A stretch of DNA of 64,000 bases, from contig JARGPU010000007.1 of NCBI GenBank assembly GCA_029210325.1, positions 32,439-96,438 of the forward strand. Reading direction: 5' to 3'. Made by a program: the position numbers and the translations under genes. The DNA is from Alcanivoracaceae bacterium (lineage in GTDB: Bacteria; Pseudomonadota; Gammaproteobacteria; Pseudomonadales; Alcanivoracaceae). Under the pieces are notes generated by a model. It was not told the origin of the DNA. It made no database searches and saw nothing but the letters and a program-made list of their open reading frames with translations. This document shows, piece by piece, positions 194 to 19,001 of this stretch; position 1 is the stretch's first letter, and each line of letters begins with the position of its first letter.

Positions 194-622
194 ATGCAGG
201 CGGTACAGAGGGGTTTTACACTGATCGAGCTGATGATCGTGGTGGCGATCATCGGCATACTTGCGGCGGTGGCTATTCCTGCCTATCAGGACTATACCGT
301 CAGGACGCAGGTATCAGAAGCGCTCAATCTGGCGTCGTCGCTGCGCTCGGAAATTGCCGGAACGGTGTTTGCTCAAACCGGCAGTTTCACTGGCGTTTCG
401 TCCGGCGCTTACGGCATCATGACCCCTGCCAGCTATCAAGGTAATTTTGTTGATCAGGTCGAGGTGGCAGATGGTGTCATCAACGTGCGTTTGGGTAATG
501 ACGTCAATCCCGGCGTGCTGGGTGAAATTGTCAGCCTGACGCCGTCTCTTGCCGGGGGGTCGATTACCTGGCAGTGCACCTTTAGTGGTGCGCCACGTTA
601 TGTGCCGAGTAATTGCCGATAG
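194..622 (+). CDS. pilA: type IVa major pilin
   Basis: Class III leader MQAVQRG|[27 protein letters not shown] (prepilin peptidase site G|F, Glu5). C-terminal disulfide loop C-x12-C ([17 protein letters not shown]). 142 aa. Confidence 0.92.
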
Positions 623-654: not shown

Positions 655-1512
655 TTGGCCATCGAGAGCATTTCTGTCGTTATTCCTGCAAAAAATGAGC
701 AGGCATCCATTGGCACTCTGGTGCAGGAAATTCTTCAGCTCGATTGCGTTCAGGAGGTGGTGGTCGTTGATGATGGCTCCACCGACCAGACTGGCGAAGT
801 CGCCCGCTCAGCGGGTGCCCGAGTGGTGCGCCATCAAGTCAGCATGGGCAATGGCGCCGCGATCAAGCGGGGCGCCAGAGAGGCTCTGGCAGACTGGGTT
901 TTATTTATGGATGCGGATGGTCAGCACCAGCCCGCAGAGATTGACCTTTTAGTGCAGGCCGCCGGTGAATCAGACATGGTCGTCGGTGCCCGTGATGCAC
1001 AGGGTCAGGCCAGTATCTGGCGCCGTGGCGCAAATGGCTTCTATAACTGGTTTGCCAGCAAGGTTACGGAATATCCGATCAAGGATTTGACCTCTGGTTT
1101 TCGCCTTGTGCGCCGGGAGAAGTTTGTCAAGTTCCTACATCTTTTGCCAAATGGCTTTTCATATCCGACCACCAGCACCATGGCGTTTTTGAGATCAGGT
1201 TATAATGTCTCTTTTGTGCCGGTTAATGTTTTGAAAAGAGAGGGTAAAAGTCATATCAGGCCGATTAAGGATGGCTTCCGGTTTTTGATCATCATCTTCA
1301 AGATTGCCACCCTCTATGCACCGCTCAAGGTGTTTGTGCCGGTGGCTATTTTTCACTTTGTGCTGGGCTTGATCAGGTACGCTTATACGTTCTCTACTGA
1401 CGGTACATTCACCAATATGTCAGCTTTGCTGATGGTGACCGCAGTGCAGATATTTCTGATCGGCCTGGTTTCCGAGCAGATAACATCGCTTGTCTACGGA
1501 AAAACCGATTAG
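655..1512 (+). CDS. family 2 glycosyltransferase, polyprenol-phosphate sugar transferase type (GtrB/ArnC/DPM1-like)
   Basis: N-terminal ISVVIPAKNE ... VVVVDDGSTDQT ... FMDADGQH GT-A motifs plus two C-terminal TM helices (FRFLIIIFKIATLY..., LLMVTAVQIFLIGLVSEQI) typical of Und-P-sugar synthases. TTG start preceded by AAGGGG. Only 32 nt after pilA, with no hairpin. Confidence 0.8.
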   Translation: MAIESISVVIPAKNEQASIGTLVQEILQLDCVQEVVVVDDGSTDQTGEVARSAGARVVRHQVSMGNGAAIKRGAREALADWVLFMDADGQHQPAEIDLLVQAAGESDMVVGARDAQGQASIWRRGANGFYNWFASKVTEYPIKDLTSGFRLVRREKFVKFLHLLPNGFSYPTTSTMAFLRSGYNVSFVPVNVLKREGKSHIRPIKDGFRFLIIIFKIATLYAPLKVFVPVAIFHFVLGLIRYAYTFSTDGTFTNMSALLMVTAVQIFLIGLVSEQITSLVYGKTD

Positions 1513-1528
1513 GGCCAAGAGAATCCTG

Positions 1529-2614
1529 ATGCCTGACGATCAGCACCTAGAGCTATATCGCGCTGAACACTTCCCCGTTTTTCAGAATAGAATGTTTGCC
1601 ACTGCAGAGCAGGCGGTGGCTTGCACTTCTGGTGATATCGTTCTTGTCCGTGATCAGCGTACAGGGCTGGTTTTTAATCAGGCTTTTAATCCTGACTTGA
1701 TGAAGTATGACTCTGATTATCAGAATGAACAGTCTCTTAGTACTGCCTTTCTTGCCCATTTGGATAATGTTGTATCCGTAATAAAGAGAAATTTCTCTGA
1801 CTCAAACCTGGTGGAGCTAGGTTGCGGCAAGGGCTACTTTCTGGAGCGGCTGCAGTCTTGCGGGTTTGATATTACGGGATTTGATCCAGCCTATGAAGGA
1901 AGCAATCCCCGGATTGAAAAACGAGAGTTTGATGTGGCTTCGGGCCTGTCTGCGCACGGAATCATTCTCCGCCATGTACTTGAGCATATTCCCTCGCCTG
2001 TCGACTTCCTGGAAAGTGTTAAAGAAGCAAATCAGGGCGCCGGAAAAATATATATTGAAGTGCCATGTTTTGACTGGATATGCCAAAGGCGGGCATGGTT
2101 CGATATTTTCTATGAGCATGTAAATTATTTTCGTTTAAAAGATCTGGTGGCCATGTTTGGTCAGGTTTATGAGGCCGGTCATTTATTCTCCGGGCAGTAT
2201 CTTTATGTGGTGGCTGATTTAGGCTCCCTCAAGCAGCCTGTGCGGGAAGAGTCTGATGACTTTGCCTTCCCTGAGGACTTTCTCCGTGGCGTAAGCCAGT
2301 GCTCTGAGATGATTCGTGCCATTGCTGCCAGTGGGGGGCTGTGTGGTGTTTGGGGAGGAGCATCTAAAGGGGTGATATTCGCCCTTCTTATGCAGCGTTG
2401 TGGCGTGGCTGTGGATTGCGTTGTTGACGTTAACCCGATGAAGCAGGGCCGTTATCTGGCATCCACTGGCTTACAGGTTAGCGCTCCAGAGCAGGCTCTT
2501 GAGCGCCTTCCTGCAGGCTCGGTGATTTTCGTTATGAATGGAAACTATGCCGACGAGATTAGTGCCATGACCAAGGGTAAGTATGACCTTGTGGTGGTGG
2601 ATGCCATATCCTGA
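1529..2614 (+). CDS. class I SAM-dependent methyltransferase, sugar C-methyltransferase-like but lacking the N-terminal Zn-ribbon
   Basis: SAM motif I LVELGCGKGYFLERL. C-terminal Rossmann-like part (VWGGASKGVIFALLM ... VVDVNPMKQGRY) resembles the C-terminal domain of TylCIII-type NDP-hexose C-methyltransferases and of the paralogue at 7118-8341. ATG at 1529 preferred over the upstream TTG at 1490. Confidence 0.65.
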   Translation: MPDDQHLELYRAEHFPVFQNRMFATAEQAVACTSGDIVLVRDQRTGLVFNQAFNPDLMKYDSDYQNEQSLSTAFLAHLDNVVSVIKRNFSDSNLVELGCGKGYFLERLQSCGFDITGFDPAYEGSNPRIEKREFDVASGLSAHGIILRHVLEHIPSPVDFLESVKEANQGAGKIYIEVPCFDWICQRRAWFDIFYEHVNYFRLKDLVAMFGQVYEAGHLFSGQYLYVVADLGSLKQPVREESDDFAFPEDFLRGVSQCSEMIRAIAASGGLCGVWGGASKGVIFALLMQRCGVAVDCVVDVNPMKQGRYLASTGLQVSAPEQALERLPAGSVIFVMNGNYADEISAMTKGKYDLVVVDAIS

Positions 2615-2620
2615 TGACTG

Positions 2621-3583
2621 CTACGCTGATCTTCTGTTTCGGATATAGAAGGCGGTGTATGCAGCTGCCCAAGCAATGATATCCCCGACAAAAACCACCG
2701 CCCGGAATGTGGCTATCAGGACGATGAGGCCGCTGATGCTGCCCGCATCCTTAAGCAAAGATGCGGATACTACTTCGGCAACACCGATACCTTGCGGGGC
2801 AAATATGGCCACATATCCGGCGGCCCAGGATATCAGGTAGGCACCCGCCATCTGAGCAAAGGACAATGCATCGTTGATGTCAGGATAGGCTTGCAAGTAA
2901 AGCGTGAAAGAAGTGGCCGCCACGCTCCAGTGAATAACTATCAGTAGTGCAGAAAGCATATATGGCCATATATGAAAATCCTCAGCACTTTCCTTGCTGT
3001 ACAGCCGAAGCATTAATGGTGCTCCGGCCAGTAGCGTTATGACTGCAGCAATAGTCGCCCAGAATACCAGCGCCAGTTCAGGTGCGGTCTGGCCAAACAG
3101 CAGCATGATGCTCCCCAGAAATGATGCCCCGGCCACCAGCATGATGTTTTCCGTAATCAGGTAGCCGGTTACCTGCAATGCGGAGGCTCCCCGTGCCTTG
3201 TAATCTGCACCCTTTGCTACGGTATGCCAGATGCCGCCCGGTAGATACTTTGCTGGCAGGCGCAGGTTATGGATATAGAACGCATCGCGGAACGATGCTC
3301 TGTATCCAAAGGTAGCAAGGCCCGCCTGAGAAAAAGCTGGAGCGATAGCGTGGAGCAAAACCCATACGCAGATGCTGGGCAGAAGGTATGACAAATCTGC
3401 CGAGTTGAATGATGCAACCAGGTGTTCTCGGCTGTTCCATGCGGCGTAGATGATTGCCAGCAGTGCGGCTGGTGTGAACAGCGCCTTGGCCAGACGGATG
3501 GCCTTGCGGCTGCTGGTTATTGTTGGCGGCGTGGTGTTGGAGTGGTCCACTGTCAGGTTCGCGGCGTCAGGTACTTTCCGCAA
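2621..3583 (-). CDS. polytopic membrane protein, UPF0104 / lysyl-PG-synthase-TM (flippase-like) family
   Basis: About 8 predicted TM helices. KYLPGGIWH motif resembles the YLPGNVWH motif I associate with UPF0104 flippase-like proteins. Overlaps the end of the upstream GT2 gene by 31 nt. Confidence 0.5.
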   Translation of the reverse strand: MRKVPDAANLTVDHSNTTPPTITSSRKAIRLAKALFTPAALLAIIYAAWNSREHLVASFNSADLSYLLPSICVWVLLHAIAPAFSQAGLATFGYRASFRDAFYIHNLRLPAKYLPGGIWHTVAKGADYKARGASALQVTGYLITENIMLVAGASFLGSIMLLFGQTAPELALVFWATIAAVITLLAGAPLMLRLYSKESAEDFHIWPYMLSALLIVIHWSVAATSFTLYLQAYPDINDALSFAQMAGAYLISWAAGYVAIFAPQGIGVAEVVSASLLKDAGSISGLIVLIATFRAVVFVGDIIAWAAAYTAFYIRNRRSA

Positions 3584-4473
3584 AAGTACTTCACGGCAAG
3601 ACAGGGAATCAGGGCAATCAGGATCAGTGCTTTAACTGACCTCGGCTGCTGTGACTGGGTTACCGCTCCAATAAGGGACAGGGGCAGTCTCGCCAGTGGC
3701 ATGAGTTTGTCAAAAAAAGAGTGGGTCAGTTTGTAGTCATTATTGTTATAGCGCTGCAGTTTTTGCTTGTATGAGGTTTCTGTCCTGAATTCCCGCCGAT
3801 TCCAGGATGGGCCTTCCGCATGAATGAAGTCCCCCCTTAGGGCTAGTCCGACAAGCAGAATCAAGTCCGTGCCAACAATATCCTTGAGGTTTTCGGGCTG
3901 CAGGTACTCCCTGCGAATAAGTCCCAGAATAGGGTTCATATTGCCCCAGAAAACGGTAAAAAAGCGGGCCACAGGATCAAGTCCGCGGGTGTCGCTCCAG
4001 CCGGTACTTTTCGAATGGCTGTTGCCGTCCCCGTCAATCCACGTTGTGCTGGCGAATGACAGGGACGCATCCGGGTGTAGTTCCAGAGCGGCGACAGTTT
4101 TCTCAAGATAGTCAGTGGACCAGCGATCATGGCCAGCTGCCCACATAAAATACTTGCCGTGGGAGCGTTCCAGAGTATATCGGAAGTTTGCTGCAGCACC
4201 CTGGTTCTGTGCAAAGCGATGGTATGTGATCTGTGGGAATTTACGGCAATACTCCTCACATATTCGCTGGGTATCGTCGGTTGAGCAGTTGTCAGAGATA
4301 AGTATCTCAACGTTTGGATAGCTCTGCGCCGTTATGGCATCAAGTGCTTCGGCAATAAACCGGGCTTCGTTAAAAATTGGCATGCCAATCGACACTAGAG
4401 GTGGTGCACTCGCAGCGCGGCTGGAAGATGCGTCGTGAGCTGGCTGATCTACAGGTGTCGAGGGGCTTCTCAT
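3553..4473 (-). CDS. family 2 glycosyltransferase (soluble type)
   Basis: VSIGMPIFNEARFIAEALDAITAQSYPNVEILISDNCSTDDT GT-A N-terminal signature. No TM helices apart from a short hydrophobic C-terminal segment. Confidence 0.8.
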   Translation of the reverse strand: MRSPSTPVDQPAHDASSSRAASAPPLVSIGMPIFNEARFIAEALDAITAQSYPNVEILISDNCSTDDTQRICEEYCRKFPQITYHRFAQNQGAAANFRYTLERSHGKYFMWAAGHDRWSTDYLEKTVAALELHPDASLSFASTTWIDGDGNSHSKSTGWSDTRGLDPVARFFTVFWGNMNPILGLIRREYLQPENLKDIVGTDLILLVGLALRGDFIHAEGPSWNRREFRTETSYKQKLQRYNNNDYKLTHSFFDKLMPLARLPLSLIGAVTQSQQPRSVKALILIALIPCLAVKYFCGKYLTPRT

Positions 4474-4699
4474 GGCATCTATCGCTGTAAAGCCGGGAAT
4501 TTTCCAGGCGGAAAATTAACCAGGTGGCTTTGGTGTATGACCTCTGAGGCTTTCCCCGGTGGATGGCTCCGAGTGGATGGCCCCGAAATGTTCTCTAGGA
4601 TAAGCTAGGGCTCGCTGTGTGACGTGTCAACCTTGTGGGCCTGAATATTGCAGGCAGGGTAGCGGCAGACAAGATAATAACGAAGCGGGGAGCAAGCAC

Positions 4700-5470
4700 A
4701 TGAAAGCCGTGATTCTGGCAGGCGGTTTGGGTACACGAATATCAGAGGAAACCCATCTCAAGCCCAAGCCGATGATTGAAATCGGTGGAAAGCCAATTCT
4801 CTGGCACATCATGAAATCCTATTCGGCCCATGGAGTGACAGAATTTGTCATTTGTTGCGGCTATAAGGGCTATGTCATCAAGGAATACTTTGCCAATTAC
4901 TTCCTGCATATGTCAGATGTCACCTTCGATATGACCGACAATCAGATGGAGGTGCATCACAAGGAGGTTGAGCCGTGGAGAGTGACTCTGGTTGGCACCG
5001 GCGAGGACTCAATGACAGGCGGCAGGCTGAGACGCGTGCGGGACTATATCAGTGATGATGATGCTTTCTGCTTTACCTATGGAGACGGTCTGAGCGATGT
5101 GGATATTCGTGGCTCCATCGATTTTCATCGTAAGCATGGCAAGCAGGCCACCGTCACCGCAGTACTGCCGCCAGGACGTTATGGTGCGCTGGCCATGCAG
5201 GGCGATCAGGTGACCGGCTTCACCGAGAAGCCACGGGGTGACGGCGGGATGATTAACGGGGGCTTTTTTGTCTTGTCTCCAGCTTGCATCGACTTGATCG
5301 AAGGTGACCATACCAGCTGGGAGTCTGAGCCATTAACCAAGCTGGCGGCCATGGGGGAGCTGATGGCGTTTGAACACCACGGCTTCTGGCAGGCTATGGA
5401 CACTCTGCGCGACAAAAATGTTCTGGAAGATCTTTGGAAATCCGGCAAGGCACCGTGGAAAAAGTGGTAA
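4700..5470 (+). CDS. rfbF: glucose-1-phosphate cytidylyltransferase
   Basis: [64 protein letters not shown] is the canonical RfbF/DdhA N-terminus. ATG at 4700 chosen (the ORF extends upstream to 4619 with non-homologous residues). Confidence 0.9.
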
Positions 5471-6564
5471 TGAATACTGCGGGTGCGGAAAAGCCTCCAT
5501 CGGATTTCTGGCGTGGCCGGAGAGTTTTGTTAACCGGACATACCGGCTTTAAGGGTGGTTGGCTAGCACTGTGGCTGAGCCGTCTTGGGGCTCAGGTAAC
5601 CGGCATTGCACTGGCGCCCGACACTTCGCCGGCGTTATATGATCTGGCTGGGGTTGCTGGTCAGCTCGAAGATAGCCATTTTTGCGATATCCGCGATTAT
5701 GCCAAGCTTGAGACTTTGGTCCGTCAGGCGAACCCGGAGGTGGTGTTTCATCTGGCTGCCCAGCCACTGGTGCGCGCGGGTTATGCAGATCCATTGATCA
5801 CTTTCTCCACCAATGTTCAGGGCACTGCCAATGTTCTCGAAGCGCTGAGGAAAGTAGACAGTGTGAAAGTCTGCGTGGCGGTGACTACGGACAAGGTTTA
5901 CAGAAATATTGAGACTTTCTATCCCTATCGCGAGTCGGATCCCCTTGGCGGGCATGACCCCTATAGTGCCAGCAAGGCCGCTTCAGAGTTGGTGATCAGT
6001 TGCTACCGCGAATCATTTCTGGCGGCGAGGGGTGTGGCGCTTGCGTCGGCCAGAGCGGGCAACGTAATCGGTGGAGGAGACTGGGCAGCGGACCGTCTGT
6101 TGCCGGATGCTGTGCGCGCGTGGGGTAAAGGAGAGCCTCTGGTAATTCGCCGGCCTGACTCTGTTCGGCCATGGCAGCATGTGCTTGAGCCACTGGCCGG
6201 ATACTTGCGTCTGGCGCAGAGCATGTGGAGTCAGCCCTCGCTTGCCGGGGCCTATAACTTTGGCCCTCCGACAGACTCAGCCGCTACCGTCCGGCATGTG
6301 GTGGAGTTTGCCCGCACTGCGTTCGGTGTTGGAGAGGTCAGTTGGGGAGAAGAGAATGCCGGCCCCCATGAGGCGGGGCTACTCACTCTGGATGTTTCAA
6401 AGGCACGCCACGATCTGGCGGTGAGTTCCCTGTGGACTCTTGAGGAATCAGTCAACAGGACAATGAGCTGGTATCGGAGGCTGGCTGAGGGCGGCGATGC
6501 AGCCTCCTTGTGCGTAGATGATATTGTCGATTACGAAAACGCCATGGCGGGATCATCAGGGTGA
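5470..6564 (+). CDS. rfbG: CDP-glucose 4,6-dehydratase
   Basis: FWRGRRVLLTGHTGFKGGWLALWL Rossmann motif and YSASKAASE catalytic YxxxK. TAATG overlap with the rfbF stop. Confidence 0.88.
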   Translation: MNTAGAEKPPSDFWRGRRVLLTGHTGFKGGWLALWLSRLGAQVTGIALAPDTSPALYDLAGVAGQLEDSHFCDIRDYAKLETLVRQANPEVVFHLAAQPLVRAGYADPLITFSTNVQGTANVLEALRKVDSVKVCVAVTTDKVYRNIETFYPYRESDPLGGHDPYSASKAASELVISCYRESFLAARGVALASARAGNVIGGGDWAADRLLPDAVRAWGKGEPLVIRRPDSVRPWQHVLEPLAGYLRLAQSMWSQPSLAGAYNFGPPTDSAATVRHVVEFARTAFGVGEVSWGEENAGPHEAGLLTLDVSKARHDLAVSSLWTLEESVNRTMSWYRRLAEGGDAASLCVDDIVDYENAMAGSSG

Positions 6565-7121
6565 ATCGTTTTATCGTATCGGACACTCCGATTGGCGGAG
6601 TTAAAGTGATTGAGCGAACCCTGATCAGCGATCACCGGGGTGGATTAAGCCGGGTATTTTGTGCCGAAGAACTGGCTGGCGCTGGCTGGGACAAGCCGGT
6701 GATGCAGATCAATCATGCTTATACGAGAAGTGCGGGTGCTATTCGGGGTATGCACTTTCAGCGCGCTCCCCATGCGGAAATGAAGCTGGTGAGTTGCGTG
6801 CGCGGAAGGATTTGGGATGTTGCGGTGGACCTGCGCGCCGATTCCGCCACCTTTATGCAATGGTTCGCTCAAGAGCTATCAGTCAGCAACCGACTGGCCA
6901 TGTTGATTCCGCAGGGAGTTGCCCACGGTTTTCAGGCGATTGAAAGCGACTGTGAGATCCTCTATCTGCACTCTTCCTGCTATCAGCCTGCCGCCGAAGA
7001 TGGCATTAATCCTTTCGATCCTGCGCTAGCTATTAAATGGCCTGTTGAGGTGACTGATATTTCTGAGAAGGACCATAACAGGGCCTTTGTAGATCAATCG
7101 TTTGCGGGAATCATTCTATGA
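6561..7121 (+). CDS. RmlC-fold NDP-4-keto-6-deoxyhexose 3,5- (or 3- / 5-) epimerase
   Basis: Cupin-type dTDP-4-dehydrorhamnose 3,5-epimerase pattern (IRGMHFQ ... KLVSCVRGRIWDVAVDLR ... PQGVAHGF). 4-nt overlaps on both sides. Confidence 0.8.
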   Translation: MNRFIVSDTPIGGVKVIERTLISDHRGGLSRVFCAEELAGAGWDKPVMQINHAYTRSAGAIRGMHFQRAPHAEMKLVSCVRGRIWDVAVDLRADSATFMQWFAQELSVSNRLAMLIPQGVAHGFQAIESDCEILYLHSSCYQPAAEDGINPFDPALAIKWPVEVTDISEKDHNRAFVDQSFAGIIL

Positions 7122-8341
7122 AGTGCCGGCATTGTGGCGCTGTTCTGCAGCATGTCTTTCTGGATCTCGGCTTTGCGCCGCCATCCAATGCTTACCGGTT
7201 GGCCTCTGATCTATCCAGACCAGAGCTGTATTACCCGCTCAGGCTAAAGGTGTGCGAGCAGTGCTGGCTGGTGCAGACGGATGACTTTACCTCGGCAGAT
7301 CAGCTATTCGATTCTGACTATGCGTACTTCTCCAGTACTTCAACAAGCTGGTTGGAACATGCGAAGAATTATGTTGAAGAAATTATTCCAGCCCTTTGTC
7401 TTGATCAGGGTAGCTTTGTTGTGGAAGTAGCATCCAACGACGGCTACTTGCTGAGGAACTTTGTTCGCCATGGCATTCCCTGTCTTGGCGTGGAGCCAAC
7501 GGCCAGCACTGCGGATTATGCTGAGAATGCAGGTGTGCCCGTTGCACGAGAGTTTTTTGGAGAAAAATTTGCTGTAGAAATGGTTGAGAAAAATGGTAAA
7601 GCGGATCTGATTATTGGCAATAATGTGTATGCCCATGTTCCCGATATCAATGACTTTACCCGTGGCTTGGCGGCTGCACTGAAATCAACAGGTACTATTA
7701 CTCTGGAATTTCCTCATTTGCAGAACCTTATTGAGAAAATCCAGTTCGATACGGTCTATCACGAGCACTTTTCCTACCTTTCACTGCATTCTGTTAGCGC
7801 TATATTCAAAGCGGCGGGCTTGCGGATATGGAATGTTGAGCGGATACCCACCCATGGTGGCAGCCTGCGCGTTTATGGCTGCCATCAGGATGATCCCCGT
7901 CAAGACAGAGACACAGTCGGTGCTGTTTTGCAGGGAGAGAAGGAGTTTGGTTTGCTGGACATTGCTGTCTATCAGGGTTTTCAGCAGAGAGTGGAGGCCG
8001 TCAAGGATCGCTTCGTAGAGTTCCTTGTAGACGCCAAGCAGCAGGGTAAGTCAGTGCTGGCCTATGGCGCGGCAGCAAAGGGCTGCACTTTGCTTAACTT
8101 TTCCGGGGTAAAGAAAGATCTTCTGCCGATGGTGGCTGATGCGGCTCCGTCGAAGCAGGGTAAGTTTATCCCTGGATGTCATATTCCGATCGTTTCACCG
8201 GAAGCTTTGGTCGATTTGGCTCCGGATTATCTGATCATATTCCCATGGAATATTGCCGCGGAGATTATCGCCCAGAATCAGTTTCTGGCTGAGCGTGGCA
8301 CTCGTTTTGTCACCTTTATTCCAGAGATGGATATTCGATGA
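7118..8341 (+). CDS. NDP-hexose C-methyltransferase (TylCIII-like), SAM dependent
   Basis: N-terminal Cys4 zinc ribbon (CRHCGAVL ... CEQCWLVQ), central SAM domain (VVEVASNDGYLLRNF), C-terminal domain (AYGAAAKGCTLLNF ... VADAAPSKQGKFIPG). This is the three-part architecture of sugar 3-C-methyltransferases. Confidence 0.75.
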   Translation: MKCRHCGAVLQHVFLDLGFAPPSNAYRLASDLSRPELYYPLRLKVCEQCWLVQTDDFTSADQLFDSDYAYFSSTSTSWLEHAKNYVEEIIPALCLDQGSFVVEVASNDGYLLRNFVRHGIPCLGVEPTASTADYAENAGVPVAREFFGEKFAVEMVEKNGKADLIIGNNVYAHVPDINDFTRGLAAALKSTGTITLEFPHLQNLIEKIQFDTVYHEHFSYLSLHSVSAIFKAAGLRIWNVERIPTHGGSLRVYGCHQDDPRQDRDTVGAVLQGEKEFGLLDIAVYQGFQQRVEAVKDRFVEFLVDAKQQGKSVLAYGAAAKGCTLLNFSGVKKDLLPMVADAAPSKQGKFIPGCHIPIVSPEALVDLAPDYLIIFPWNIAAEIIAQNQFLAERGTRFVTFIPEMDIR

Positions 8342-9165
8342 CAGAGTTAGTACTGGTTACCGGGGGAACAGGCTTCGTCGGCTCGCAGGTAGTCCGCTCC
8401 CTATTGGATTCGGGAGCACGGGTGAGGATGCTGGTCAGGCCGAATAGCTCTGATGTGTTTGCCTCTGGCTCCGGGGTCGAGTCAGTCCGATTCTCTGATG
8501 ACTTGTTTGCCGAGTCGGATGATTGGTGGTCGGAGGTTTTTAGTGAGATCGATACGGTTATTCATCTGGCATGGTATGCGGAGCCCGGCAAATACTTGTC
8601 ATCTGAGCTGAATTTTCACTGTTTGAGTGGCACGCTGCGCATGGCCAAAGGCGCTATCCGAGCGGGTGTCAGGCGGTTTGTCGGCGTTGGTACCTGTTTC
8701 GAGTACGATACGGCAGCGGGGTATCTGTCTGTGGATACGCCTCTTCTGCCGCGCACGCCCTATGCTTCCTGTAAGGCGGCGAGTTATCTGTCACTGTCCA
8801 GCTGGTTTGCTCTGGCGGGGGTAGAGTTTCTCTGGTGTAGATTGTTCTATCTGTATGGTGAGGGCGAAGATTCACGACGCTTTGTGCCTTATCTGAGGGA
8901 CCGGTTGGAGTCCGGGCAGCAGGCGGATCTGACCTCGGGTAATCAGATCAGGGATTACCTTGATGTTGCCGTGGCCGGGAAAATGATTGCAGAGCAGGCG
9001 CTTGCTGGTCAGCAAGGCGCAGTTAACATTTGCTCTGGCGTACCTGTCACGATCAGGCAGCTTGCCGAGCAGATAGCGGAAGAATATGGTCGCGTCGATC
9101 TGCTTAATTTTGGCGCCAGACCGGATAATGAATACGATCCGCCGTGCATTGTCGGTGTGAAATAG
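8338..9165 (+). CDS. NAD(P)-dependent SDR (epimerase/dehydratase family), probable 4-ketoreductase
   Basis: LVTGGTGFVGSQVV Rossmann motif and YASCKAASY catalytic YxxxK. Translationally coupled in the sugar operon. Confidence 0.75.
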   Translation: MTELVLVTGGTGFVGSQVVRSLLDSGARVRMLVRPNSSDVFASGSGVESVRFSDDLFAESDDWWSEVFSEIDTVIHLAWYAEPGKYLSSELNFHCLSGTLRMAKGAIRAGVRRFVGVGTCFEYDTAAGYLSVDTPLLPRTPYASCKAASYLSLSSWFALAGVEFLWCRLFYLYGEGEDSRRFVPYLRDRLESGQQADLTSGNQIRDYLDVAVAGKMIAEQALAGQQGAVNICSGVPVTIRQLAEQIAEEYGRVDLLNFGARPDNEYDPPCIVGVK

Positions 9166-9191
9166 AATAATTCGAATAGGGGAATAAAAGC

Positions 9192-9962
9192 ATGAGCGAT
9201 TTTGGTCAGGAAGCGATAGAGCGCGTTGCGGCATATCCGCAGGAAAAGGCGCTACTGGATTCAGCTGCTCAGTTTCTTCGTGATTCAGTGGGCCCCAAGT
9301 ACTCCTATAACTTTTTCTGGCAGGGGCGGCCGATTATTCAGTATCCGCAGGATATTGTCGCTATGCAGGAGCTGATATGGTCTGTTCAGCCAGATCTGAT
9401 TATCGAAACCGGCATCGCTCATGGCGGCTCGCTTATTTTCAGTGCCTCCATGCTGGCCCTGCTGGATATGTATGACGCTATAGAGTCCGGGAAAACACTG
9501 GATCCGTCCAAGTCGGCCAGAAAAGTGATTGGCGTGGATATTGATATTCGCGCGCATAACCGGGTTGCCGTTGAGCAGCATCCCATGGCATCAAGAATCA
9601 CCATGATCCAGGGGTCCAGCGTGGCCGCAGATGTGGTGGAGCAGGTTAAAGCACTGGCGGCAGGCTACTCCCGAGTTCTTGTTTGCCTGGACAGCAACCA
9701 CACCCATGAGCACGTTCTTGCTGAGCTGGAGGCCTATGCCCCATTGGTAACCAAGGGCAGTTACTGTGTGGTGTTTGATACCCTTATCGAAGATATGCCC
9801 GACGATGCCTACCCGGATCGTCCCTGGGGTCCGGGCAACAATCCGAAGACGGCAGTCTGGGAGTATTTGAAAGGGCATCCGGAGTATGAGATTGACGCCC
9901 ATATACATCAGAAGCTGATGGTTACCGTGGCTCCGGATGGATTTCTCAAGAAGATTGGTTAG
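9192..9962 (+). CDS. CmcI / cephalosporin-hydroxylase family methyltransferase (sugar O-methyltransferase type)
   Basis: QYPQDIVAMQELIWSVQPDLIIETGIAHGGSLIF is the conserved core of the CmcI family, to which rhamnosyl O-methyltransferases belong. Confidence 0.7.
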   Translation: MSDFGQEAIERVAAYPQEKALLDSAAQFLRDSVGPKYSYNFFWQGRPIIQYPQDIVAMQELIWSVQPDLIIETGIAHGGSLIFSASMLALLDMYDAIESGKTLDPSKSARKVIGVDIDIRAHNRVAVEQHPMASRITMIQGSSVAADVVEQVKALAAGYSRVLVCLDSNHTHEHVLAELEAYAPLVTKGSYCVVFDTLIEDMPDDAYPDRPWGPGNNPKTAVWEYLKGHPEYEIDAHIHQKLMVTVAPDGFLKKIG

Positions 9963-10809
9963 TAAGCCGTAACGACAAATCCACCGCCCTGACATGCTTG
10001 GTGATGGCTCCCGACGATACGCAGATCGGGAACTCCAGCGACGGCATGTGCTCCAGGGTGGAGGGTGTTACCGAGCCAGAAATTTCTACGGTAATGCCTG
10101 CCTCATAAGCGGCCAGCGCTTTGTGGCGGTCGTTGATATCAAACTCATCAAGCATGATTTGATCCGGTCGTGCGGCGATCGCTTCTTCAAGCTCGGCCAC
10201 GGTTTCCACTTCGACAATAACTTTTTTGTCTGGCGCTAAAGCGCGTGCCCGTTGGATAGCTGCGGTAATTGAGCCGCATGCAGCAATGTGATTTTCCTTA
10301 ATCAGAAAAGCATCATAAAGACCGATACGGTGGTTCTGGCAGCCGCCGCAGAGCACAGCATATTTTTGTGCGGTACGCAGGCCCGGCAGGGTCTTGCGGG
10401 TGTCCAGAATGGTGATCGGCTGGCTGGAAACGGCATCGGCATAGTGGCGCGCGCTGGTGGCGGTGCCGGACAAGGTCTGGAGAAAGTTAAGTGCCGGACG
10501 TTCGCCGCTAAGAATCTGCCGGCTGTTACCGTTCAGGGTGCAAAGAATATCGTTAGCTTTAACCTGATCGCCATCGGCAAAGTGCCAGTTCAGGGTAACG
10601 TCATCACCCACCTGGCGAAATACTTCATCCACCCAGGCGCGGCCACATAGCACGGCGTTTTCGCGGCTGATAATCGTGGCACTGGCACGGTCATCCGCCG
10701 GAATAAGTTGGGCAGTGATATCACCGCTACCGATATCTTCCTGCAGGGCTGCTCGGACCTGTAGCGGGATATCGTTGATAACGTAATCCGGTAGTTCAGG
10801 CTTTTTCAC
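9946..10809 (-). CDS. nadC: nicotinate-nucleotide diphosphorylase (carboxylating)
   Basis: LDTRKTLPGLRTAQKYAVLCGGCQNHRIGLYDAFLIKENH and VEVETVAELEEA motifs of quinolinate phosphoribosyltransferase. Confidence 0.9.
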   Translation of the reverse strand: MKKPELPDYVINDIPLQVRAALQEDIGSGDITAQLIPADDRASATIISRENAVLCGRAWVDEVFRQVGDDVTLNWHFADGDQVKANDILCTLNGNSRQILSGERPALNFLQTLSGTATSARHYADAVSSQPITILDTRKTLPGLRTAQKYAVLCGGCQNHRIGLYDAFLIKENHIAACGSITAAIQRARALAPDKKVIVEVETVAELEEAIAARPDQIMLDEFDINDRHKALAAYEAGITVEISGSVTPSTLEHMPSLEFPICVSSGAITKHVRAVDLSLRLTNQSS

Positions 10810-12145
10810 GATTAAAAAACTCTTTGGTTAATTTCACGACAAGCGGACTGAGAAGTAACAGAGCAATCAGGTTGGGCAGTGCCATCAGGGCGTTAAGAAC
10901 ATCGGCCACATCCCAGATCAGCGTCAGGCTGCTGGCCGCACCGACTGGCACCATGGCAATCCAGAACAGGCGGAACGGCAATACGGCGCGCTCGCCAAAC
11001 AGGTATTGGGCGCAGCGTTCACCATAAAGGCTCCAGCCGAGCAGGGTGGTAAAGGCAAACACGGCCAGCCCCACTACCACAATGGTTTCCCCCATGGCGC
11101 CGAATGTGGCGCTGAACGCCAGCGCTGACAGTGGTGCGCCACTCTGGCCGGATTCGAAAGCGCCGGTGACGACGATGGCAAGGCCAGTGATGGAGCAGAT
11201 AATGATGGTGTCGATAAAGCTGCCCAACATGGCAATGGAGCCTTGCCGGGCCGGGTGATCGGTGGTCGCCGAGGCATGGGCAATAGGGGTACTGCCGAGG
11301 CCGGCCTCGTTGGAGAAAATACCCCGGGCGATGCCAAAGCGGATGGCGGCCCAGACGGTGGCGCCGGCAAAGCCGCCACCGGCGGCGCTGCCGGTAAAGG
11401 CATCGGACAGACAGCGAGCCAGTGCCGCAGGCAGTTGAGCGGCGTGGTCAATCAATACCACCATGCCACACAGCAGATAGGCCAATGCCATCAGCGGGAC
11501 CAGCGCGGTGGCGACATGGGCAATACGTTTGATGCCGCCCAGAATCACCATGGCCACCAGCACGGCCATCACCAGGCCGGTATAGGTGGTATCAAAGCCA
11601 AAGGTGCTATGCAGACCGTCAGCCACAGAATGCGCCTGCACACCGTTGCCAATACCGAATCCTGCAAACATACCGAACAGAGCGAACAGGAAGGCCAGCC
11701 AGCCGAATTTGGGACCAAGGCCGTTGCGAATGTAGTACATCGGCCCGCCTATATACTGGCCGTGGCTGTCCTGTTGGCGAAAGTGAACCGCCAGTACCGC
11801 TTCACTGTATTTGGTGGCGATGCCGACCAGCGCAATCAGCCACATCCACACCAAAGCCCCAGGTCCGCCCAAAGCGATGGCAGTCGCTACACCGGCAATA
11901 TTGCCGGTGCCCACGGTAGCGGCCATGGCGGTGGCCAGGGCCGCGTAGCCGGCAATGGTGCCGTCCCCGTGGGAGCGACCAAATAGCTGGCGAAAGCCAA
12001 ACCCAAGCCGGCGAATAGGTAGAAAGCCCAGTCGCAGGGTTAGCCAGAGCCCGGTGCCACCAATCAGTAGCAGCATTGCGGGCCCCCAGACCACTGATGA
12101 TATCTGGGATACAAGGTTGGCGAGTGCTTGCTGATCAAAGGTCAT
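10796..12145 (-). CDS. alanine/glycine:cation symporter (AGCS family)
   Basis: GNIAGVATAIALGGPGALVWMW and IFSNEAGLGSTPIAHA motifs. About 11 TM helices. 449 aa. Confidence 0.9.
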   Translation of the reverse strand: MTFDQQALANLVSQISSVVWGPAMLLLIGGTGLWLTLRLGFLPIRRLGFGFRQLFGRSHGDGTIAGYAALATAMAATVGTGNIAGVATAIALGGPGALVWMWLIALVGIATKYSEAVLAVHFRQQDSHGQYIGGPMYYIRNGLGPKFGWLAFLFALFGMFAGFGIGNGVQAHSVADGLHSTFGFDTTYTGLVMAVLVAMVILGGIKRIAHVATALVPLMALAYLLCGMVVLIDHAAQLPAALARCLSDAFTGSAAGGGFAGATVWAAIRFGIARGIFSNEAGLGSTPIAHASATTDHPARQGSIAMLGSFIDTIIICSITGLAIVVTGAFESGQSGAPLSALAFSATFGAMGETIVVVGLAVFAFTTLLGWSLYGERCAQYLFGERAVLPFRLFWIAMVPVGAASSLTLIWDVADVLNALMALPNLIALLLLSPLVVKLTKEFFNREKA

Positions 12146-12354
12146 TGGCGTTCCGTGTCGGCGGTAGCGAAGCGGATTAGCTTAGAGCATGGCGGCTGAC
12201 CGGCAAAGGGCTTGAGGGCTGTTGCCGGCTTGTTAGCCCAGAGAGGAGAGGATTCGACAAGATATAAGCATAAATGATTATTTGAGAACTACCTCATAAT
12301 GCTTACTTCTGGCTGGTGATAGTGTGATCACAATATAACCGCACAGGTGCCCTC

Positions 12355-14631
12355 GTGGACAAAGTGACGACCCTGAAAACTGTTAGCTCGGCCCGCCCGC
12401 CCAAGCCTCTGCCGCGACCGGTAGAAAAGGCCAGCGTGCGTGCCTGTGAGCTATTGGTGGGATATCTGTGCGATATGCTCGATAGCGCAGATGACAAGCT
12501 GTTCGATCTGTCTGACGGCCAGCAAAGTGGCGCACTGGATGCCATGCGCGAGCTGCGTCTGAAGCGTGCCGGTGTTGAGTCCGGTTTCCGTCAGGCGCTG
12601 GAAAATCAGTTTCGCAGCGCTTACCTCGGTGAAGACCGCTCCTCGTCATCGGTGCTGGGTAAACTTGATCTGGACAGTCTGTCTCTGGTGCAGGAAGACC
12701 AGATGGAAGTGGATCTGGCCATTAATACCATGTCGCGCCGGGTGCGCATGATCAGCGAAACCCAGTTGCGGGCCTTTAATCACCGGCTCGAATATTTAAG
12801 TGAGGGCAAGAGGGAGTTCAGTGAGCGTAATAGCCCGCTGGACCCGGCGCAGATTGTTGCCGCTTTTCGCGTTGAGACGGAAAAGCTGGATGTGGATATC
12901 AACACCCGGCTGATCATGTACAAGCTATTTGAACGGCTGGTGCTTAGTGAGTTGGGTTTTGTTATTACCGAAGCCAACCAGACCCTTATCGACAGCGGCA
13001 TCCTGCCAGACATGACGGCGCCACCGATTCGCGCCAGCCGTCAGCCCGGCCAGAGTGTGCCGAAAGTGAAAGCTGGTGAACCTCAGGCTAATCCGATCGA
13101 GTCATTGCTGGGCTCTGCGGGTGGTGGTGCGGCTGCAGACCCGGCAGCCCTTTACGCTATGTTCGGCGAGCTGCTGGATGCGGTGCGGCTGATCTCGGCG
13201 CGCCCGGATGCTGGTCCGGCGCCTTCTAACATGGCGGTAATGCAGGGCGGCGTGGCCTATGTGAATGGCGCGCCGGTTACCAACCCGGGTCATGTTCGTC
13301 AGGTTTCCTCCAACGATCTGGTAGGCATGCTCAACCGCCTGCAGCGAGTGGAAACCTCGCTGGAGGAGCTTGGTCAGGAGAGTCATGACCCGCTGCGCGC
13401 GGAAGATATGGATGTACGAGTCGAGCTATCCAGTCTGCTCGGTGCGGAAGGTGGCGAGGAGGCGGTGCACGCCCTCGATCAGGCAGACGACGCGGTGATC
13501 AATCTGGTGTCGATGCTGTTTGATTTTATTTTCGATGATCAAGCGCTGGCCACTGAGATCAAGGCGCTGATCGGCCGTTTGCAGATTCCGTTCCTGAAGA
13601 CGGCCATTGCTGACAAAAGCTTCTTTAGCAATGAACAACATGCTGCTCGGCAATTTCTTAATACGCTGGCAAAGGCGGGCAGCCAGTGGTCGTCTTCTCA
13701 AGGGGTGTCTGATCCGCTTTATCGGTTGATCCGCGAAAGCGTGTTCAAGGTGTTGAACGACTTTGATCTGGATGCGGGCCTGTTCGAGCGCCTGCGTGCG
13801 GATATCGAAGATGTGATGGATCGGCAGGAGAGCCAGCGCCAGCGCATTGAAGAGCGTCTGCAGGAAGTTGAGCAAGGTAAGGTTCTGGCCGAGCAGACCC
13901 GGCGTATTGTCACCGTAGCCGTGCAGGAACGCATCGGCCAGCGAGCCTTGCCGGCGGTGGCGGGCAGCCTGATTCGTGACGCCTGGCAGCAGGTGCTGTA
14001 TCTGACCTGTTTGCGCGAGGGCAGTGGCAGCGAGCCGTGGAATCGTTATCTGAAAGTGCTTGAGGTGCTGATCTGGAGCGTGCTGCCGAAGAAAGATGAT
14101 GCAGCGCGGGCCAAGCTGGCCGACTTGGCACCGAAGCTGATAGTTAGCCTGCGCAAGGGGCTTGAAGCTATTGGCTATGACGCTAGTGAACAACGCCGCC
14201 GGTTGGATGAACTGGTGGCGCTGCATGCCCAGTTGCTGCAGCCTGTCACCGATAGCGAACTGGCCGGCGAAGTGGTGGTGTTTGAGCCGGAGCCTGAGCC
14301 GCAAGCAGAACAACAGGCGCAGGAAGAACTGCCGATTGATCATCCGACTTTAAAAATGGCCTGTGCCATGAAGTCGGGAACCTGGGTTGATATTGCTAGC
14401 GGCGAAGGCAGCAAGCGCCTGCGGCTGGCGGCCAATGTGCGCCATGGCAGCAAGCTGGTGTTTATCAATGCCCGCGGTATCCGCGAGGCGGAGTATTCCG
14501 GGATGGCGCTGGCGCTGGCGGTAGAGGCCGGTGAAATCCGTATAGTAGACGGCAGCCCGCTGTTTGACCGGGCGCTGGAATCGGTGATCGGAGATCTGCG
14601 CCGCATGCGGCAACAACCCGTTAGTGCCTGA
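12355..14631 (+). CDS. DUF1631-type large cytoplasmic protein
   Basis: 758-aa acidic protein. Occupies the slot between nadC and ampD that, from memory, holds a DUF1631 hypothetical gene in Pseudomonas. No catalytic motif recognised. GTG start. Confidence 0.55.
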   Translation: MDKVTTLKTVSSARPPKPLPRPVEKASVRACELLVGYLCDMLDSADDKLFDLSDGQQSGALDAMRELRLKRAGVESGFRQALENQFRSAYLGEDRSSSSVLGKLDLDSLSLVQEDQMEVDLAINTMSRRVRMISETQLRAFNHRLEYLSEGKREFSERNSPLDPAQIVAAFRVETEKLDVDINTRLIMYKLFERLVLSELGFVITEANQTLIDSGILPDMTAPPIRASRQPGQSVPKVKAGEPQANPIESLLGSAGGGAAADPAALYAMFGELLDAVRLISARPDAGPAPSNMAVMQGGVAYVNGAPVTNPGHVRQVSSNDLVGMLNRLQRVETSLEELGQESHDPLRAEDMDVRVELSSLLGAEGGEEAVHALDQADDAVINLVSMLFDFIFDDQALATEIKALIGRLQIPFLKTAIADKSFFSNEQHAARQFLNTLAKAGSQWSSSQGVSDPLYRLIRESVFKVLNDFDLDAGLFERLRADIEDVMDRQESQRQRIEERLQEVEQGKVLAEQTRRIVTVAVQERIGQRALPAVAGSLIRDAWQQVLYLTCLREGSGSEPWNRYLKVLEVLIWSVLPKKDDAARAKLADLAPKLIVSLRKGLEAIGYDASEQRRRLDELVALHAQLLQPVTDSELAGEVVVFEPEPEPQAEQQAQEELPIDHPTLKMACAMKSGTWVDIASGEGSKRLRLAANVRHGSKLVFINARGIREAEYSGMALALAVEAGEIRIVDGSPLFDRALESVIGDLRRMRQQPVSA

Positions 14632-14718
14632 GCTTTTACTTGGCAGTTAAAGTGTCGATACTGTGGCGACGTTATGTAGGCATATGCTCTAACGTATGCG
14701 CCGCAGGAGGACACGCCG

Positions 14719-15276
14719 TTGCTGACCGTGAAGAACCACTGGGTGATTGAGGCTCGTCACTGTCCGTCGCCCAATTTCAATGAGCGTCCGGACGCCAACG
14801 ACATTTCCCTGATTGTGATCCATAACATCAGTTTGCCGCCGGCGCAGTTTGGCGGCCCGCATATTGATGAGCTGTTCTGCAATTGTCTTGATCCGCACGG
14901 CCACCCCTATTTCGCCGAAATTGCTGCCATGGAAGTGTCATCCCACTTCCTGATTCGTCGTGACGGCGAGCTGGTGCAGTACGTACCTTGTGACCGGCGC
15001 GCCTGGCACGCGGGCAAGTCGCAGTGGCAGGGGCGGGAGAACTGTAACGATTTTTCTATCGGCATTGAGCTGGAAGGCAGTGATCATGAAGCTTACACAA
15101 CTATGCAGTATGCTCGGTTGAACGAGTTGCTCGATGTGCTGCGTCAGCACTACGGGATTCCCCCCCAGGCGCTGGCCGGGCATGATCAGATTGCGCCAGG
15201 CAGAAAAACCGACCCAGGGCCAGCTTTTGAATGGGCCAGAGTGGAAGGGGTGGATATTTCCGGCAAGCTGGCCTGA
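14719..15276 (+). CDS. ampD: 1,6-anhydro-N-acetylmuramyl-L-alanine amidase
   Basis: SPNFNERP ... LIVIHNISLP ... SSHFLIRRDGELVQYV ... RAWHAG ... NDFSIGIELEG ... GHDQIAPGRKTDPGP, amidase_2 Zn-binding pattern. TTG start. Confidence 0.88.
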   Translation: MLTVKNHWVIEARHCPSPNFNERPDANDISLIVIHNISLPPAQFGGPHIDELFCNCLDPHGHPYFAEIAAMEVSSHFLIRRDGELVQYVPCDRRAWHAGKSQWQGRENCNDFSIGIELEGSDHEAYTTMQYARLNELLDVLRQHYGIPPQALAGHDQIAPGRKTDPGPAFEWARVEGVDISGKLA

Positions 15277-15309
15277 CACGCCTGCCGAATAGACAATGCA
15301 CAACGGAGA

Positions 15310-18991: not shown

Positions 18992-19001
18992 GGAGCAAAG
19001 C

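Follow-up and report, generated by a model that had tools for sequence, protein, structure and literature searches.

A window of 64,000 nucleotides (nt) from a metagenome-assembled genome (MAG) of an Alcanivoracaceae bacterium (GCA_029210325.1, contig JARGPU010000007.1, positions 32,439-96,438) contains a glycan island at 655-9962, between a type IV pilin gene and nadC. With moderate confidence we assign this island to a TfpW-type locus of pilin O-glycosylation, in which it would be the variable glycan cassette. The order of genes in the locus is coaE-pilD-pilC-pilB on the reverse strand, pilA1, a gene encoding a candidate GT-C glycosyltransferase with a TPR domain, pilA2, the cassette itself and, again on the reverse strand, nadC. 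The cassette was ascribed eleven genes in a preliminary description of the stretch. However, the list of open reading frames (ORFs) contains ten, and the same ten are found by an independent gene call on an identical contig.

The left end of the locus was analyzed in Logan contig L001, which is identical to the window across the overlap and reaches 2883 nt further upstream. The pilin gene pilA1 (L001:443-871) is directly followed by a gene encoding a protein of 651 amino acids (L001:943-2898, protein P0001), and the last four codons and the stop codon of the latter are bases 1-15 of the window (forward strand). This gene thus lies between two pilin genes. The preliminary description stated that no GT-C enzyme is present. 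This is correct inside the window, but the 651-residue GT-C/TPR candidate is encoded directly upstream, and the final transferase seemed to be missing because the window starts at the very end of its gene.

The pilin gene of the window, pilA2 (194-622, forward strand), encodes a major-pilin-type protein of 142 amino acids with the Pfam domains N_methyl and Pilin. It is the second of two pilin genes. The nadC boundary of the island was placed correctly in the preliminary description. The two pilins are 51% identical, and the 82-residue globular part of PilA2 contains 15 serine and threonine residues, compared to 22 in PilA1. A candidate promoter element of the sigma-54 type (-24/-12), TGGCAC-N5-GTGC, was read by eye on the forward strand at 141-155, 39 nt upstream of the pilA2 start codon. 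Sigma-54 promoters are characterized by the GG-N10-GC spacing, and the candidate element is a good fit to it. Transcription of pilA2 would then be driven from a promoter of its own, independently of pilA1 and the GT-C gene.

The 651-residue protein is not recognized by standard family searches. It has no match to any Pfam glycosyltransferase or GT-C family, to any NCBIfam family, or on the sequence level to PDB; its sub-threshold Pfam matches are DUF6684, TPR_14 and TM_PetC only. Lowering the threshold yields no Pfam GT-C family for this protein (E up to 1) or for 26 aligned homologues (E up to 0.1), with the exception of one stray match to GtrII and one to DUF6056. Neither Pfam nor NCBIfam contains a model covering the membrane domain, and sequence and profile searches against PDB produced either nothing or TPR matches. 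Homologues of about 640 amino acids number in the thousands, and are labeled in the source databases as 'TPR repeat protein' or, in several entries from JGI, 'protein O-mannosyl-transferase'. A search for homologues in plasmids gave no match.

The AlphaFold models have a mean predicted local distance difference test (pLDDT) of 87 for the full-length protein and 80 for residues 1-408, with a predicted template modelling score (pTM) of 0.85-0.86. When the model of residues 1-408 is compared with known structures by Foldseek, the top matches are STT3/Stt3, ALG6, GPI mannosyltransferase I and PglB with TM-scores 0.41-0.51, while proteins other than GT-C score at most 0.19; the E-values are weak, the best being 0.018. 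The full-length model retrieves only TPR proteins. Residues approximately 405-640 match TPR proteins by both structure and profile, and TPR Pfam families are seen in most of the 27 homologues, the most frequent being TPR_14 (19 of 27). In the alignment of these 27 proteins, D37 and D38 of the motif FxFDD (FLFDDEPN in P0001) are invariant, and in the model they lie in the loop following the first helix. The motifs GRP, KEN and EHRxY are likewise invariant. TfpW (AAM52060.1) has been described as a large GT-C enzyme encoded after pilA, with a DDX motif in periplasmic loop 1, a C-terminal TPR domain and a proline motif YX6PFX7P in periplasmic loop 4 (bioRxiv 10.1101/2020.04.19.049825). The pattern Y280-X6-P287 is invariant among the homologues, but the subsequent F-X7-P is not conserved. 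Since the modeled membrane domain resembles GT-C enzymes, the first loop carries the acidic residues, the C-terminus is of the TPR type and the gene follows a pilin gene, the protein is predicted to be a TfpW-like GT-C glycosyltransferase with a periplasmic TPR domain.

The association of this enzyme with pilins is conserved. The GT-C alignment was used to scan species-representative genomes, and the 80 loci obtained (L002-L081) were compared with the proteins of the window. In 45 of 73 loci the gene directly upstream of the GT-C gene, in the same orientation, encodes a pilin. A homologue of the first cassette gene, the GT2 glycosyltransferase gene ORF1 (655-1512, forward strand), is found at most 2.5 kb downstream of the GT-C gene in 40 of 72 loci, and both features occur together in 30 of 69. 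These frequencies make pilin the best-supported candidate acceptor of the glycan, which the preliminary description had listed as unknown.

The GT-C family is present, among other lineages, in Acinetobacter, Pseudomonas, Phytopseudomonas, Marinobacter, Alcanivorax, Microbulbifer, Marinicella, Moraxella, Methylococcaceae, Lysobacterales and some Betaproteobacteria, and also in Cellvibrionaceae, which we take to be the family of Teredinibacter. For Acinetobacter, Teredinibacter, Azotobacter and Kingella, TfpW homologues encoded downstream of pilA have been reported (bioRxiv 10.1101/2020.04.19.049825). When an Acinetobacter member of the family was used as a query, many Acinetobacter species were retrieved; A. 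venetianus, whose TfpW homologue is named in the same study, is not among the 120 matches listed.

Some loci deviate from this arrangement. Two or three tandem GT-C/TPR paralogues behind one pilin gene were observed in L024, L033, L042, L054, L055, L069, L078 and in a Moraxellaceae MAG (L057:9936-15212, three paralogues). The paralogues may differ in the sugar that they add or in the pilin that they serve. In nine other loci (L003, L004, L005, L020, L025, L034, L041, L047, L062) the GT-C gene does not adjoin a pilin gene and there is no ORF1-like GT2 nearby; a pair of pilin genes is found about 5 kb away on the opposite strand, with pilB/C/D-like genes in between. By their titles, seven of these loci belong to Woeseiaceae, L005 to a Gammaproteobacteria MAG and L034 to a Chromatiales MAG.

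ORF1 ends in membrane helices and is predicted to be a polyprenyl-phosphate glycosyltransferase of the type represented by GtrB, ArnC, Dol-P-Man synthase and AglJ. Its sequence contains the Pfam domain Glycos_transf_2 (E 6.5e-28) and the conserved motifs DDGS and DADGQH. Matches in PDB to ArnC (9hwj, residues 3-276) and GtrB (5ekp, residues 5-276) cover the full length including the membrane helices, and the match to Dol-P-Man synthase (5mlz, E 1e-13) covers the N-terminal catalytic domain (residues 5-171). Among the NCBIfam models AglJ matches best (E 2e-39); every equivalog score falls far short of its cut-off, so that no donor is assigned. The gap between the pilA2 stop codon and ORF1 is 32 nt (623-654). 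No terminator-like site was found in it, nor any stable hairpin: it folds worse than shuffled sequence (z-score of the minimum free energy +1.2). There are thus signs that pilA2 and ORF1 are co-expressed. The terminator, folding and PDB analyses bear out the preliminary description at this point, namely the pilA stop codon at 622, the 32-nt gap without a hairpin and the GtrB/ArnC-type GT2 with C-terminal helices. The more general prediction of periplasmic transfer via a lipid-phosphate carrier also seems fair.

Orthologues of ORF1 with 49-64% identity occur in about 47 other GT-C loci. Their mean pairwise identity across orders is 59%; the value for ORF1 itself is 54.6%, so that only two of the 47 are more divergent, yet it is not an outlier. 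No genes for sugars linked to cytidine diphosphate (CDP) were seen in these other loci within the flanking DNA examined. Since its orthologues occur in loci that show no CDP-sugar genes, ORF1 more likely loads a common hexose, acting as a general primer.

The right half of the cassette is a sugar pathway. RfbF, glucose-1-phosphate cytidylyltransferase (4700-5470, forward strand), and RfbG, CDP-glucose 4,6-dehydratase (5470-6564, forward), score well above the equivalog cut-offs of TIGR02623 (472 bits, cut-off 300) and TIGR02622 (466 bits, cut-off 278), respectively. ORF7 (6561-7121, forward) is an RmlC-fold epimerase for 4-keto-6-deoxy sugars, predicted to act at C3, C5 or both: it matches PF00908 (E 1.3e-55) and the RmlC family in PDB (E 4e-31), and scores slightly under the TIGR01221 cut-off (144.8 bits, cut-off 155.75). 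ORF8 (7118-8341, forward) is a candidate sugar 3-C-methyltransferase of the TylCIII / TcaB9 / KijD1 type. All three of its domains are matched, Methyltransf_13 (zinc, PF08421), Methyltransf_23 (PF13489) and Methyltransf_14 (PF08484), and the structures 5t6b (E 6.6e-78), 3ndi (E 1e-72) and 4rv9 (E 8e-69) are matched over the full length; the solved relatives are KijD1, TcaB9 and D-mycarose 3-C-methyltransferase. ORF9 (8338-9165, forward) is an extended short-chain dehydrogenase/reductase (SDR) of the Epimerase family (E 5.8e-31) with the motifs GGTGFVGS and YASCK, and its role as the 4-ketoreductase is presumed from its position in the pathway. ORF10 (9192-9962, forward) belongs to the CmcI / rhamnosyl-O-methyltransferase family (PF04989, RMNT_CmcI, E 1.1e-99, 333 bits) and has no sequence match in PDB.

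One more enzyme of this kind is encoded on the left side of the cassette. ORF2 (1529-2614, forward) is an S-adenosylmethionine-dependent methyltransferase distantly related to sugar C-methyltransferases. It contains Methyltransf_23 (E 1.5e-20) and a partial Methyltransf_14 domain, and matches 4rv9 over residues 77-359 (E 2e-11), but lacks the N-terminal zinc domain. Its start is at 1490 in the ORF list and at 1529 in the gene call.

Four junctions between rfbF and the SDR gene are translationally coupled: TAATG at rfbF/rfbG, GTGA at rfbG/rmlC (ORF7), ATGA at rmlC/ORF8 and ATGA at ORF8/ORF9. The preliminary description was right about these, but it extended the coupling to many genes, whereas ORF1 and ORF2 are separated by a gap of 16 nt and ORF4 and ORF3 by a gap of 2 nt, with no overlap at either junction. 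Its functional labels for the genes agree with the Pfam, NCBIfam and PDB matches from domain searches run for each ORF.

The activation with CDP and the 4,6-dehydration are well supported by the two equivalogs. Epimerization, 3-C-methylation, 4-reduction and O-methylation are assigned by family membership, and in particular methylation of a CDP-4-keto-6-deoxyhexose at C3 by ORF8 is suggested by the conserved order rfbF-rfbG-rmlC-C-methyltransferase. A CDP-linked C-methylated and O-methylated 6-deoxyhexose, as originally proposed, is a fair prediction in view of the RfbF and RfbG equivalogs, the full-length matches of ORF8 and the CmcI score of ORF10. A vinelose-like product is plausible. We take vinelose to be 6-deoxy-3-C-methyl-2-O-methyl-L-talose, found as a CDP-sugar in Azotobacter vinelandii. 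The product may carry a third methyl group, or more methyls than vinelose, because ORF2, the third methyltransferase, belongs to the sugar pathway in other genomes. A literature search found no paper mentioning vinelose and, for 6-deoxy-3-C-methyl sugars with CDP, only a paper on Coxiella virenose. Azotobacter is not among the matches listed for the ORF8 protein search.

The distribution of this pathway was studied by a metagenome scan with ORF8, which yielded 80 closest loci with 57-65% identity, many of them on contigs that are cut short. Among these loci rmlC is present in 73, rfbG in 60, rfbF in 50, CmcI in 39 and SDR in 28. An ORF2-like methyltransferase occurs in eight of the 80, always between SDR and CmcI; the ORF2 orthologues in these loci and in Arenimonas oryziterrae (L072) are 33-57% identical.

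The same data bear on the question which glycosyltransferase uses the CDP-sugar. ORF4 (3553-4473, reverse strand) encodes a Leloir-type GT2 with the GT-A fold (Glycos_transf_2, E 5.6e-27; closest in NCBIfam to TuaG, EpsE and WcaA). An ORF4-like GT2 with 23-41% identity is found near the sugar cassette in 16 of the 80 metagenome loci, often directly after CmcI. As ORF4-like GT2s are the usual companions of the cassette and ORF1 orthologues occur without the CDP-sugar pathway, ORF4 is the likely transferase for this sugar.

Alternatively, the route implied by the preliminary description could be completed with the upstream GT-C enzyme: ORF1 would take the finished CDP-sugar and form a methylated 6-deoxyhexose linked to undecaprenyl phosphate, ORF3 would flip it and the GT-C enzyme would add single sugars or polymers to pilin, ORF4 having a side role. 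We rank this possibility second to the scheme with ORF1 as a primer, and consider it rather unlikely. It is consistent with the substrates of the GT-C enzymes of GtrABC, ArnT and TfpW, which take lipid-phosphate monosaccharides (polyprenyl-phosphate arabinofuranose for TfpW), with the apparent co-transcription of pilA2, ORF1 and ORF2, the last being a part of the sugar pathway elsewhere, and with the exchange of ORF1 together with the cassette (57% identity to the counterpart in a sister MAG, compared to 80-85% for the flanking genes). However, ORF1 does not stand out among orthologues from about 47 loci, none of which shows a CDP-sugar pathway in the flanking DNA examined; the frequent companion of the cassette in metagenomes is the ORF4-like enzyme (16 of 80) and not the ORF1-like one (0 of 80); and GtrB-type enzymes are described as users of UDP-sugars (PMC11127046).

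The remaining gene, ORF3 (2621-3550, reverse strand), encodes a multi-pass membrane protein, probably of the LPG_synthase_TM superfamily (MprF flippase domain). The match of ORF3 itself to PF03706 spans positions 10-295 of the 302-position profile with a score of 22 bits at a cut-off of 33.4, and 13 of the 16 aligned members of the family from GT-C loci match PF03706 (best E 2e-20). By iterated profile searches, 17 to 19 GT-C loci have an ORF3-like gene and 11 have a Wzx-like one, and the two never occur together (one-sided Fisher test, p 0.034). An ABC exporter is the third flippase candidate, observed in one locus (Acinetobacter sp. SFB, L077:12776-14482). Thus ORF3 is an MprF-like candidate flippase for a lipid-linked glycan.

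The genes at the site between pilA2 and nadC differ between relatives. In the sister MAG (L002) the GT-C protein, PilA2 and NadC are 80%, 85% and 82% identical to those of the window locus, but the cassette consists of five different genes, GT4, a GT2 (GT2a), two methyltransferases and a Wzx-like gene. Two Alcanivorax genomes have before nadC a GT4/GT2, a sulfotransferase or UDP-glucose dehydrogenase, a methyltransferase and a Wzx-like gene. The cassette of Pseudomonas sp. P818 encodes an aminotransferase, an ATP-grasp enzyme, a methyltransferase, Wzx, GT2, GT4 and UDP-glucose dehydrogenase, and that of Acinetobacter sp. SFB the ABC exporter, a methyltransferase and GT4. None of the cassette genes scanned matches a Pfam family of initiating phosphoglycosyl-transferases. 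Thus the cassette appears to be exchangeable, with relatives swapping glycosyltransferases, modifying enzymes and flippases at one site.

The protein search with ORF8 also revealed the same island elsewhere. In Alcanivorax sp. 1008 (GCA_020667895.1) pilA1, the GT-C gene, pilA2, all ten cassette genes and nadC are present with 86-99.6% amino acid identity. ENA contig L165 shares with the window the right half of the island and the CmcI-nadC junction, its six sugar-pathway genes being 76-97% identical. In view of this gene-for-gene conservation, the island is probably functional and kept by selection. A decaying or silent remnant of horizontal transfer, devoid of present function, would agree with the slightly low G+C content of the island (52.5%, compared to 55.9% in the rest of the window). 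However, it contains ten intact reading frames and four translationally coupled junctions, and the identities with Alcanivorax sp. 1008 and L165 tell against decay, so that this explanation is very improbable. A decaying insertion was rejected, as the island is intact in this second genome.

Arenimonas oryziterrae combines the same pathway with pilins independently: two pilin genes and the GT-C gene are directly followed by rfbF, rfbG, rmlC, the C-methyltransferase, SDR, ORF2-like methyltransferase and CmcI genes and by a Wzx-like gene. Elsewhere the pathway occurs in other settings. In L092 it is a part of a polysaccharide-type cluster. In L154 (2141-14967) rfbF, rfbG, rmlC, the C-methyltransferase, SDR, ORF2-like methyltransferase and CmcI genes are followed by a gene for a 1298-residue protein, which contains two GT2 domains, and then by three flagellin genes in tandem, each of 218 codons. 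This suggests that the same sugar may be used in flagellin glycosylation in another organism. In Shewanella aestuarii (L166, CP050313.1:1083519-1104742) the cassette is found amid GT2 genes, a methyltransferase, a sulfotransferase-like gene and an MptE-like (Maf-type) gene, and a phage-type integrase gene adjoins it; the SDR gene is split in the gene call into pieces of 45 and 234 codons. This may be a flagellin-glycosylation island or a mobile one. In Sulfurimicrobium lacus (L167, AP022853.1:3736908-3758131) a DegT aminotransferase and a hexapeptide acetyltransferase take the place of SDR, and the cassette resides in a Wzm/Wzt (Wzt_C) O-antigen cluster beside genes for NeuB-type nonulosonic acid synthesis. 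The predicted product of this variant is a 4-acetamido-3-C-methyl sugar. Overall, the CDP-sugar cassette appears to be a common portable module that is rarely joined to a pilin locus, so far at least twice.

One could suppose that here, too, the true target of the island is not pilin but a different glycoconjugate, for instance a side branch of the O-antigen, the lipopolysaccharide (LPS) core, a capsule or another surface protein, and that the pilA-nadC junction is simply a hot spot of insertion. Indeed, no pilin, GT-C or ORF1-like GT2 gene was found at any of the 80 closest metagenome cassettes; the settings of L092, L167, L154 and L166 are of the polysaccharide, O-antigen and flagellin or Maf-like types; and a GT2 with a flippase and a GT-C enzyme is also the layout of the LPS-modifying Gtr and Arn systems. 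On the other hand, the order pilin/GT-C/GT2 is kept in many gammaproteobacterial and some betaproteobacterial lineages, the unrelated Arenimonas joins the same sugar cassette to pilin, pilin and GT-C, there is no terminator after pilA2, and the cassette is devoid of Wzy, Wzz, ABC-transporter and initiating phosphoglycosyl-transferase genes. We consider a non-pilin target to be unlikely.

With pilin as the acceptor, the system could operate as follows. RfbF and RfbG, whose families are clear, would form CDP-4-keto-6-deoxy-D-glucose by their established chemistry, and the RmlC-like epimerase, the 3-C-methyltransferase and SDR would convert it to CDP-3-C-methyl-6-deoxyhexose. Additional methylation would be due to the CmcI-type enzyme and ORF2, acting on the nucleotide sugar or on the sugar once transferred. 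At the cytoplasmic face ORF1 would charge undecaprenyl phosphate with a common hexose, taken from a nucleotide sugar, and ORF4 would join the methylated deoxyhexose from CDP to this lipid-linked primer. The lipid-linked glycan would be flipped by ORF3, and in the periplasm the GT-C/TPR enzyme would move it to serine or threonine residues of one or both pilins. Swapping of cassettes would create variety on the pilus surface, serving, for example, as a defense against pilus-specific phages.

Several observations weigh against this interpretation. The characterized bacterial GT-C enzymes mostly use lipid-phosphate monosaccharide donors, and the transfer of an oligosaccharide linked to undecaprenyl phosphate is argued by analogy with archaeal dolichol-phosphate pathways. 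Both the common hexose as the donor sugar of ORF1 and the lipid-linked primer as the acceptor of ORF4 are putative. The low identity of ORF1 to its counterpart in the sister MAG means that ORF1 travels with the cassette, so its specificity might vary. The Arenimonas locus contains no ORF1-like GT2 in the 10 kb examined, and ORF3 by itself scores under the PF03706 cut-off. Since the 80 closest cassettes occur without pilin and GT-C genes, the sugar could serve another glycoconjugate in this genome as well. Finally, the interpretation is drawn from genes, and those of a MAG.

The other features of the locus are as follows. The intergenic region at 4474-4699, defined by gene coordinates only, separates the divergent ORF4-ORF3 operon (reverse strand) and the operon from rfbF to CmcI (forward strand). 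The conserved right boundary of the variable site, nadC (9946-10809, reverse strand), is convergent with ORF10 and overlaps its 3' end. Its orthologue in Alcanivorax sp. 1008 (L164, 96% identity) carries the QRPTase_N and QRPTase_C domains. The region 9946-20672 extends beyond nadC through genes for a Na/Ala symporter, a DUF1631 protein, an Amidase_2 (AmpD-like) protein, an unannotated gene and pyruvate dehydrogenase E1. This flank presumably corresponds to the pilA-nadC-ampD neighborhood of Pseudomonas aeruginosa, minus its tRNA gene; ARAGORN finds no tRNA gene anywhere in the window. The long ORFs at 11243-11986 (forward) and 13426-14343 (reverse) lie antisense within the symporter and DUF1631 genes and are probably artifacts of high G+C content rather than genes.

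To our knowledge, the only well-studied types of enzymes encoded next to pilA are TfpO/PglL and TfpW with arabinofuranose. More tentatively, and with clear doubt, we suggest that pilA, a TfpW-like GT-C gene and a GtrB-like GT2 gene could be the core of a widespread undescribed class of pilin glycosylation systems, with oligosaccharides on undecaprenyl monophosphate, interchangeable flippases and cassettes swapped at the pilin-nadC site, here for a vinelose-type, branched and multiply methylated deoxyhexose. Such a class would be the bacterial equivalent of the AglJ pathway in archaea and of DPM1/TMTC in eukaryotes. If this is true, TfpW-like enzymes are the hub of a far wider system with representatives in Acinetobacter, Pseudomonas, Alcanivorax, Marinobacter, Moraxella, methanotrophs and others. 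Glycans in this system would come from exchangeable cassettes, with three candidate types of flippases for glycans linked to undecaprenyl phosphate and a testable route to a rare branched methylated sugar, and both the gene cluster and the acceptor of an old orphan CDP-sugar would be at hand. For experiments one could use Alcanivorax sp. 1008, apparently a cultured strain, which bears the exact island. Glycosylation of pilins is known to shield type IV pili from pilus-specific phages and to alter the recognition of the pilus surface (bioRxiv 10.1101/150227; PMC11841053).

In comparison with known systems, the locus resembles both TfpW-type pilin glycosylation and the three-component Gtr and Arn systems; no description of its arrangement was found in the literature searched. 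The closest system is TfpW of P. aeruginosa group IV (Pa5196 / PA7), where pilA-tfpW-tfpX are accompanied by the D-arabinofuranose genes PsPA7_6246-6249. Both systems have a GT-C gene directly after pilA, the DD motif in the first loop, a TPR domain and, by prediction in the present case, a lipid-phosphate donor made in the cytoplasm. The similarity is one of described features, and of the proline motif only the YX6P half (Y280, P287) is kept. Unlike that locus, the one described here has no gene assigned to the DprE1/E2 or polyprenyl-phosphoribose (DPPR) synthase families, no arabinofuranose pathway starting from phosphoribosyl pyrophosphate and no TfpX. The donor side is formed by a GtrB-type GT2, Leloir glycosyltransferases, a nucleotide-sugar pathway and a flippase candidate.

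The three-component systems Gtr of phages (GtrA/GtrB/GtrC) and Arn (ArnC/ArnE-F/ArnT) follow the same logic of a polyprenyl-phosphate GT2, a flippase and an extracytoplasmic GT-C enzyme, and ORF1 has full-length matches to both GtrB and ArnC. However, here the likely acceptor is a protein, pilin, rather than LPS, and the additional Leloir glycosyltransferases imply an oligosaccharide rather than a single sugar. No ORF matches the GtrA family, and ArnE/F are absent as well; the flippase candidate is MprF-like in this island and Wzx-like or ABC-type in the sister cassettes. In P. aeruginosa 1244, Neisseria and Acinetobacter, the enzyme adjacent to pilA is TfpO / PglL, and the glycans also vary between strains, but these are Wzy_C enzymes using O-antigen-type units linked to undecaprenyl pyrophosphate. 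Neither Wzy_C nor an initiating phosphoglycosyl-transferase is matched by any ORF of the locus.

N-glycosylation in Haloferax volcanii proceeds on dolichol monophosphate with AglJ, further glycosyltransferases, a Wzx-like flippase and AglB. The sequence of priming, extension, flipping and transfer by a GT-C enzyme is the same, and AglJ is the best NCBIfam match of ORF1. However, that system is archaeal, N-linked and of the STT3/AglB type, whereas here we propose serine or threonine residues of a bacterial pilin and a GT-C enzyme with a TPR domain. In eukaryotes Dol-P-Man synthase DPM1 supplies the O-mannosyltransferases TMTC1-4, which are GT-C enzymes with a C-terminal TPR domain. The architecture, a GT2 synthase of a lipid-phosphate sugar plus a GT-C/TPR enzyme, is shared, while the donor sugar and the acceptor differ. 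As for the sugar itself, ORF8 has the same three-domain structure as TylCIII, TcaB9 and KijD1; the latter act on dTDP-sugars of antibiotic pathways, and CDP is the presumed carrier here. The enzyme set of the island fits 6-deoxy-3-C-methyl-2-O-methylhexose, as in CDP-vinelose, with a third methyltransferase, ORF2, in the predicted pathway.

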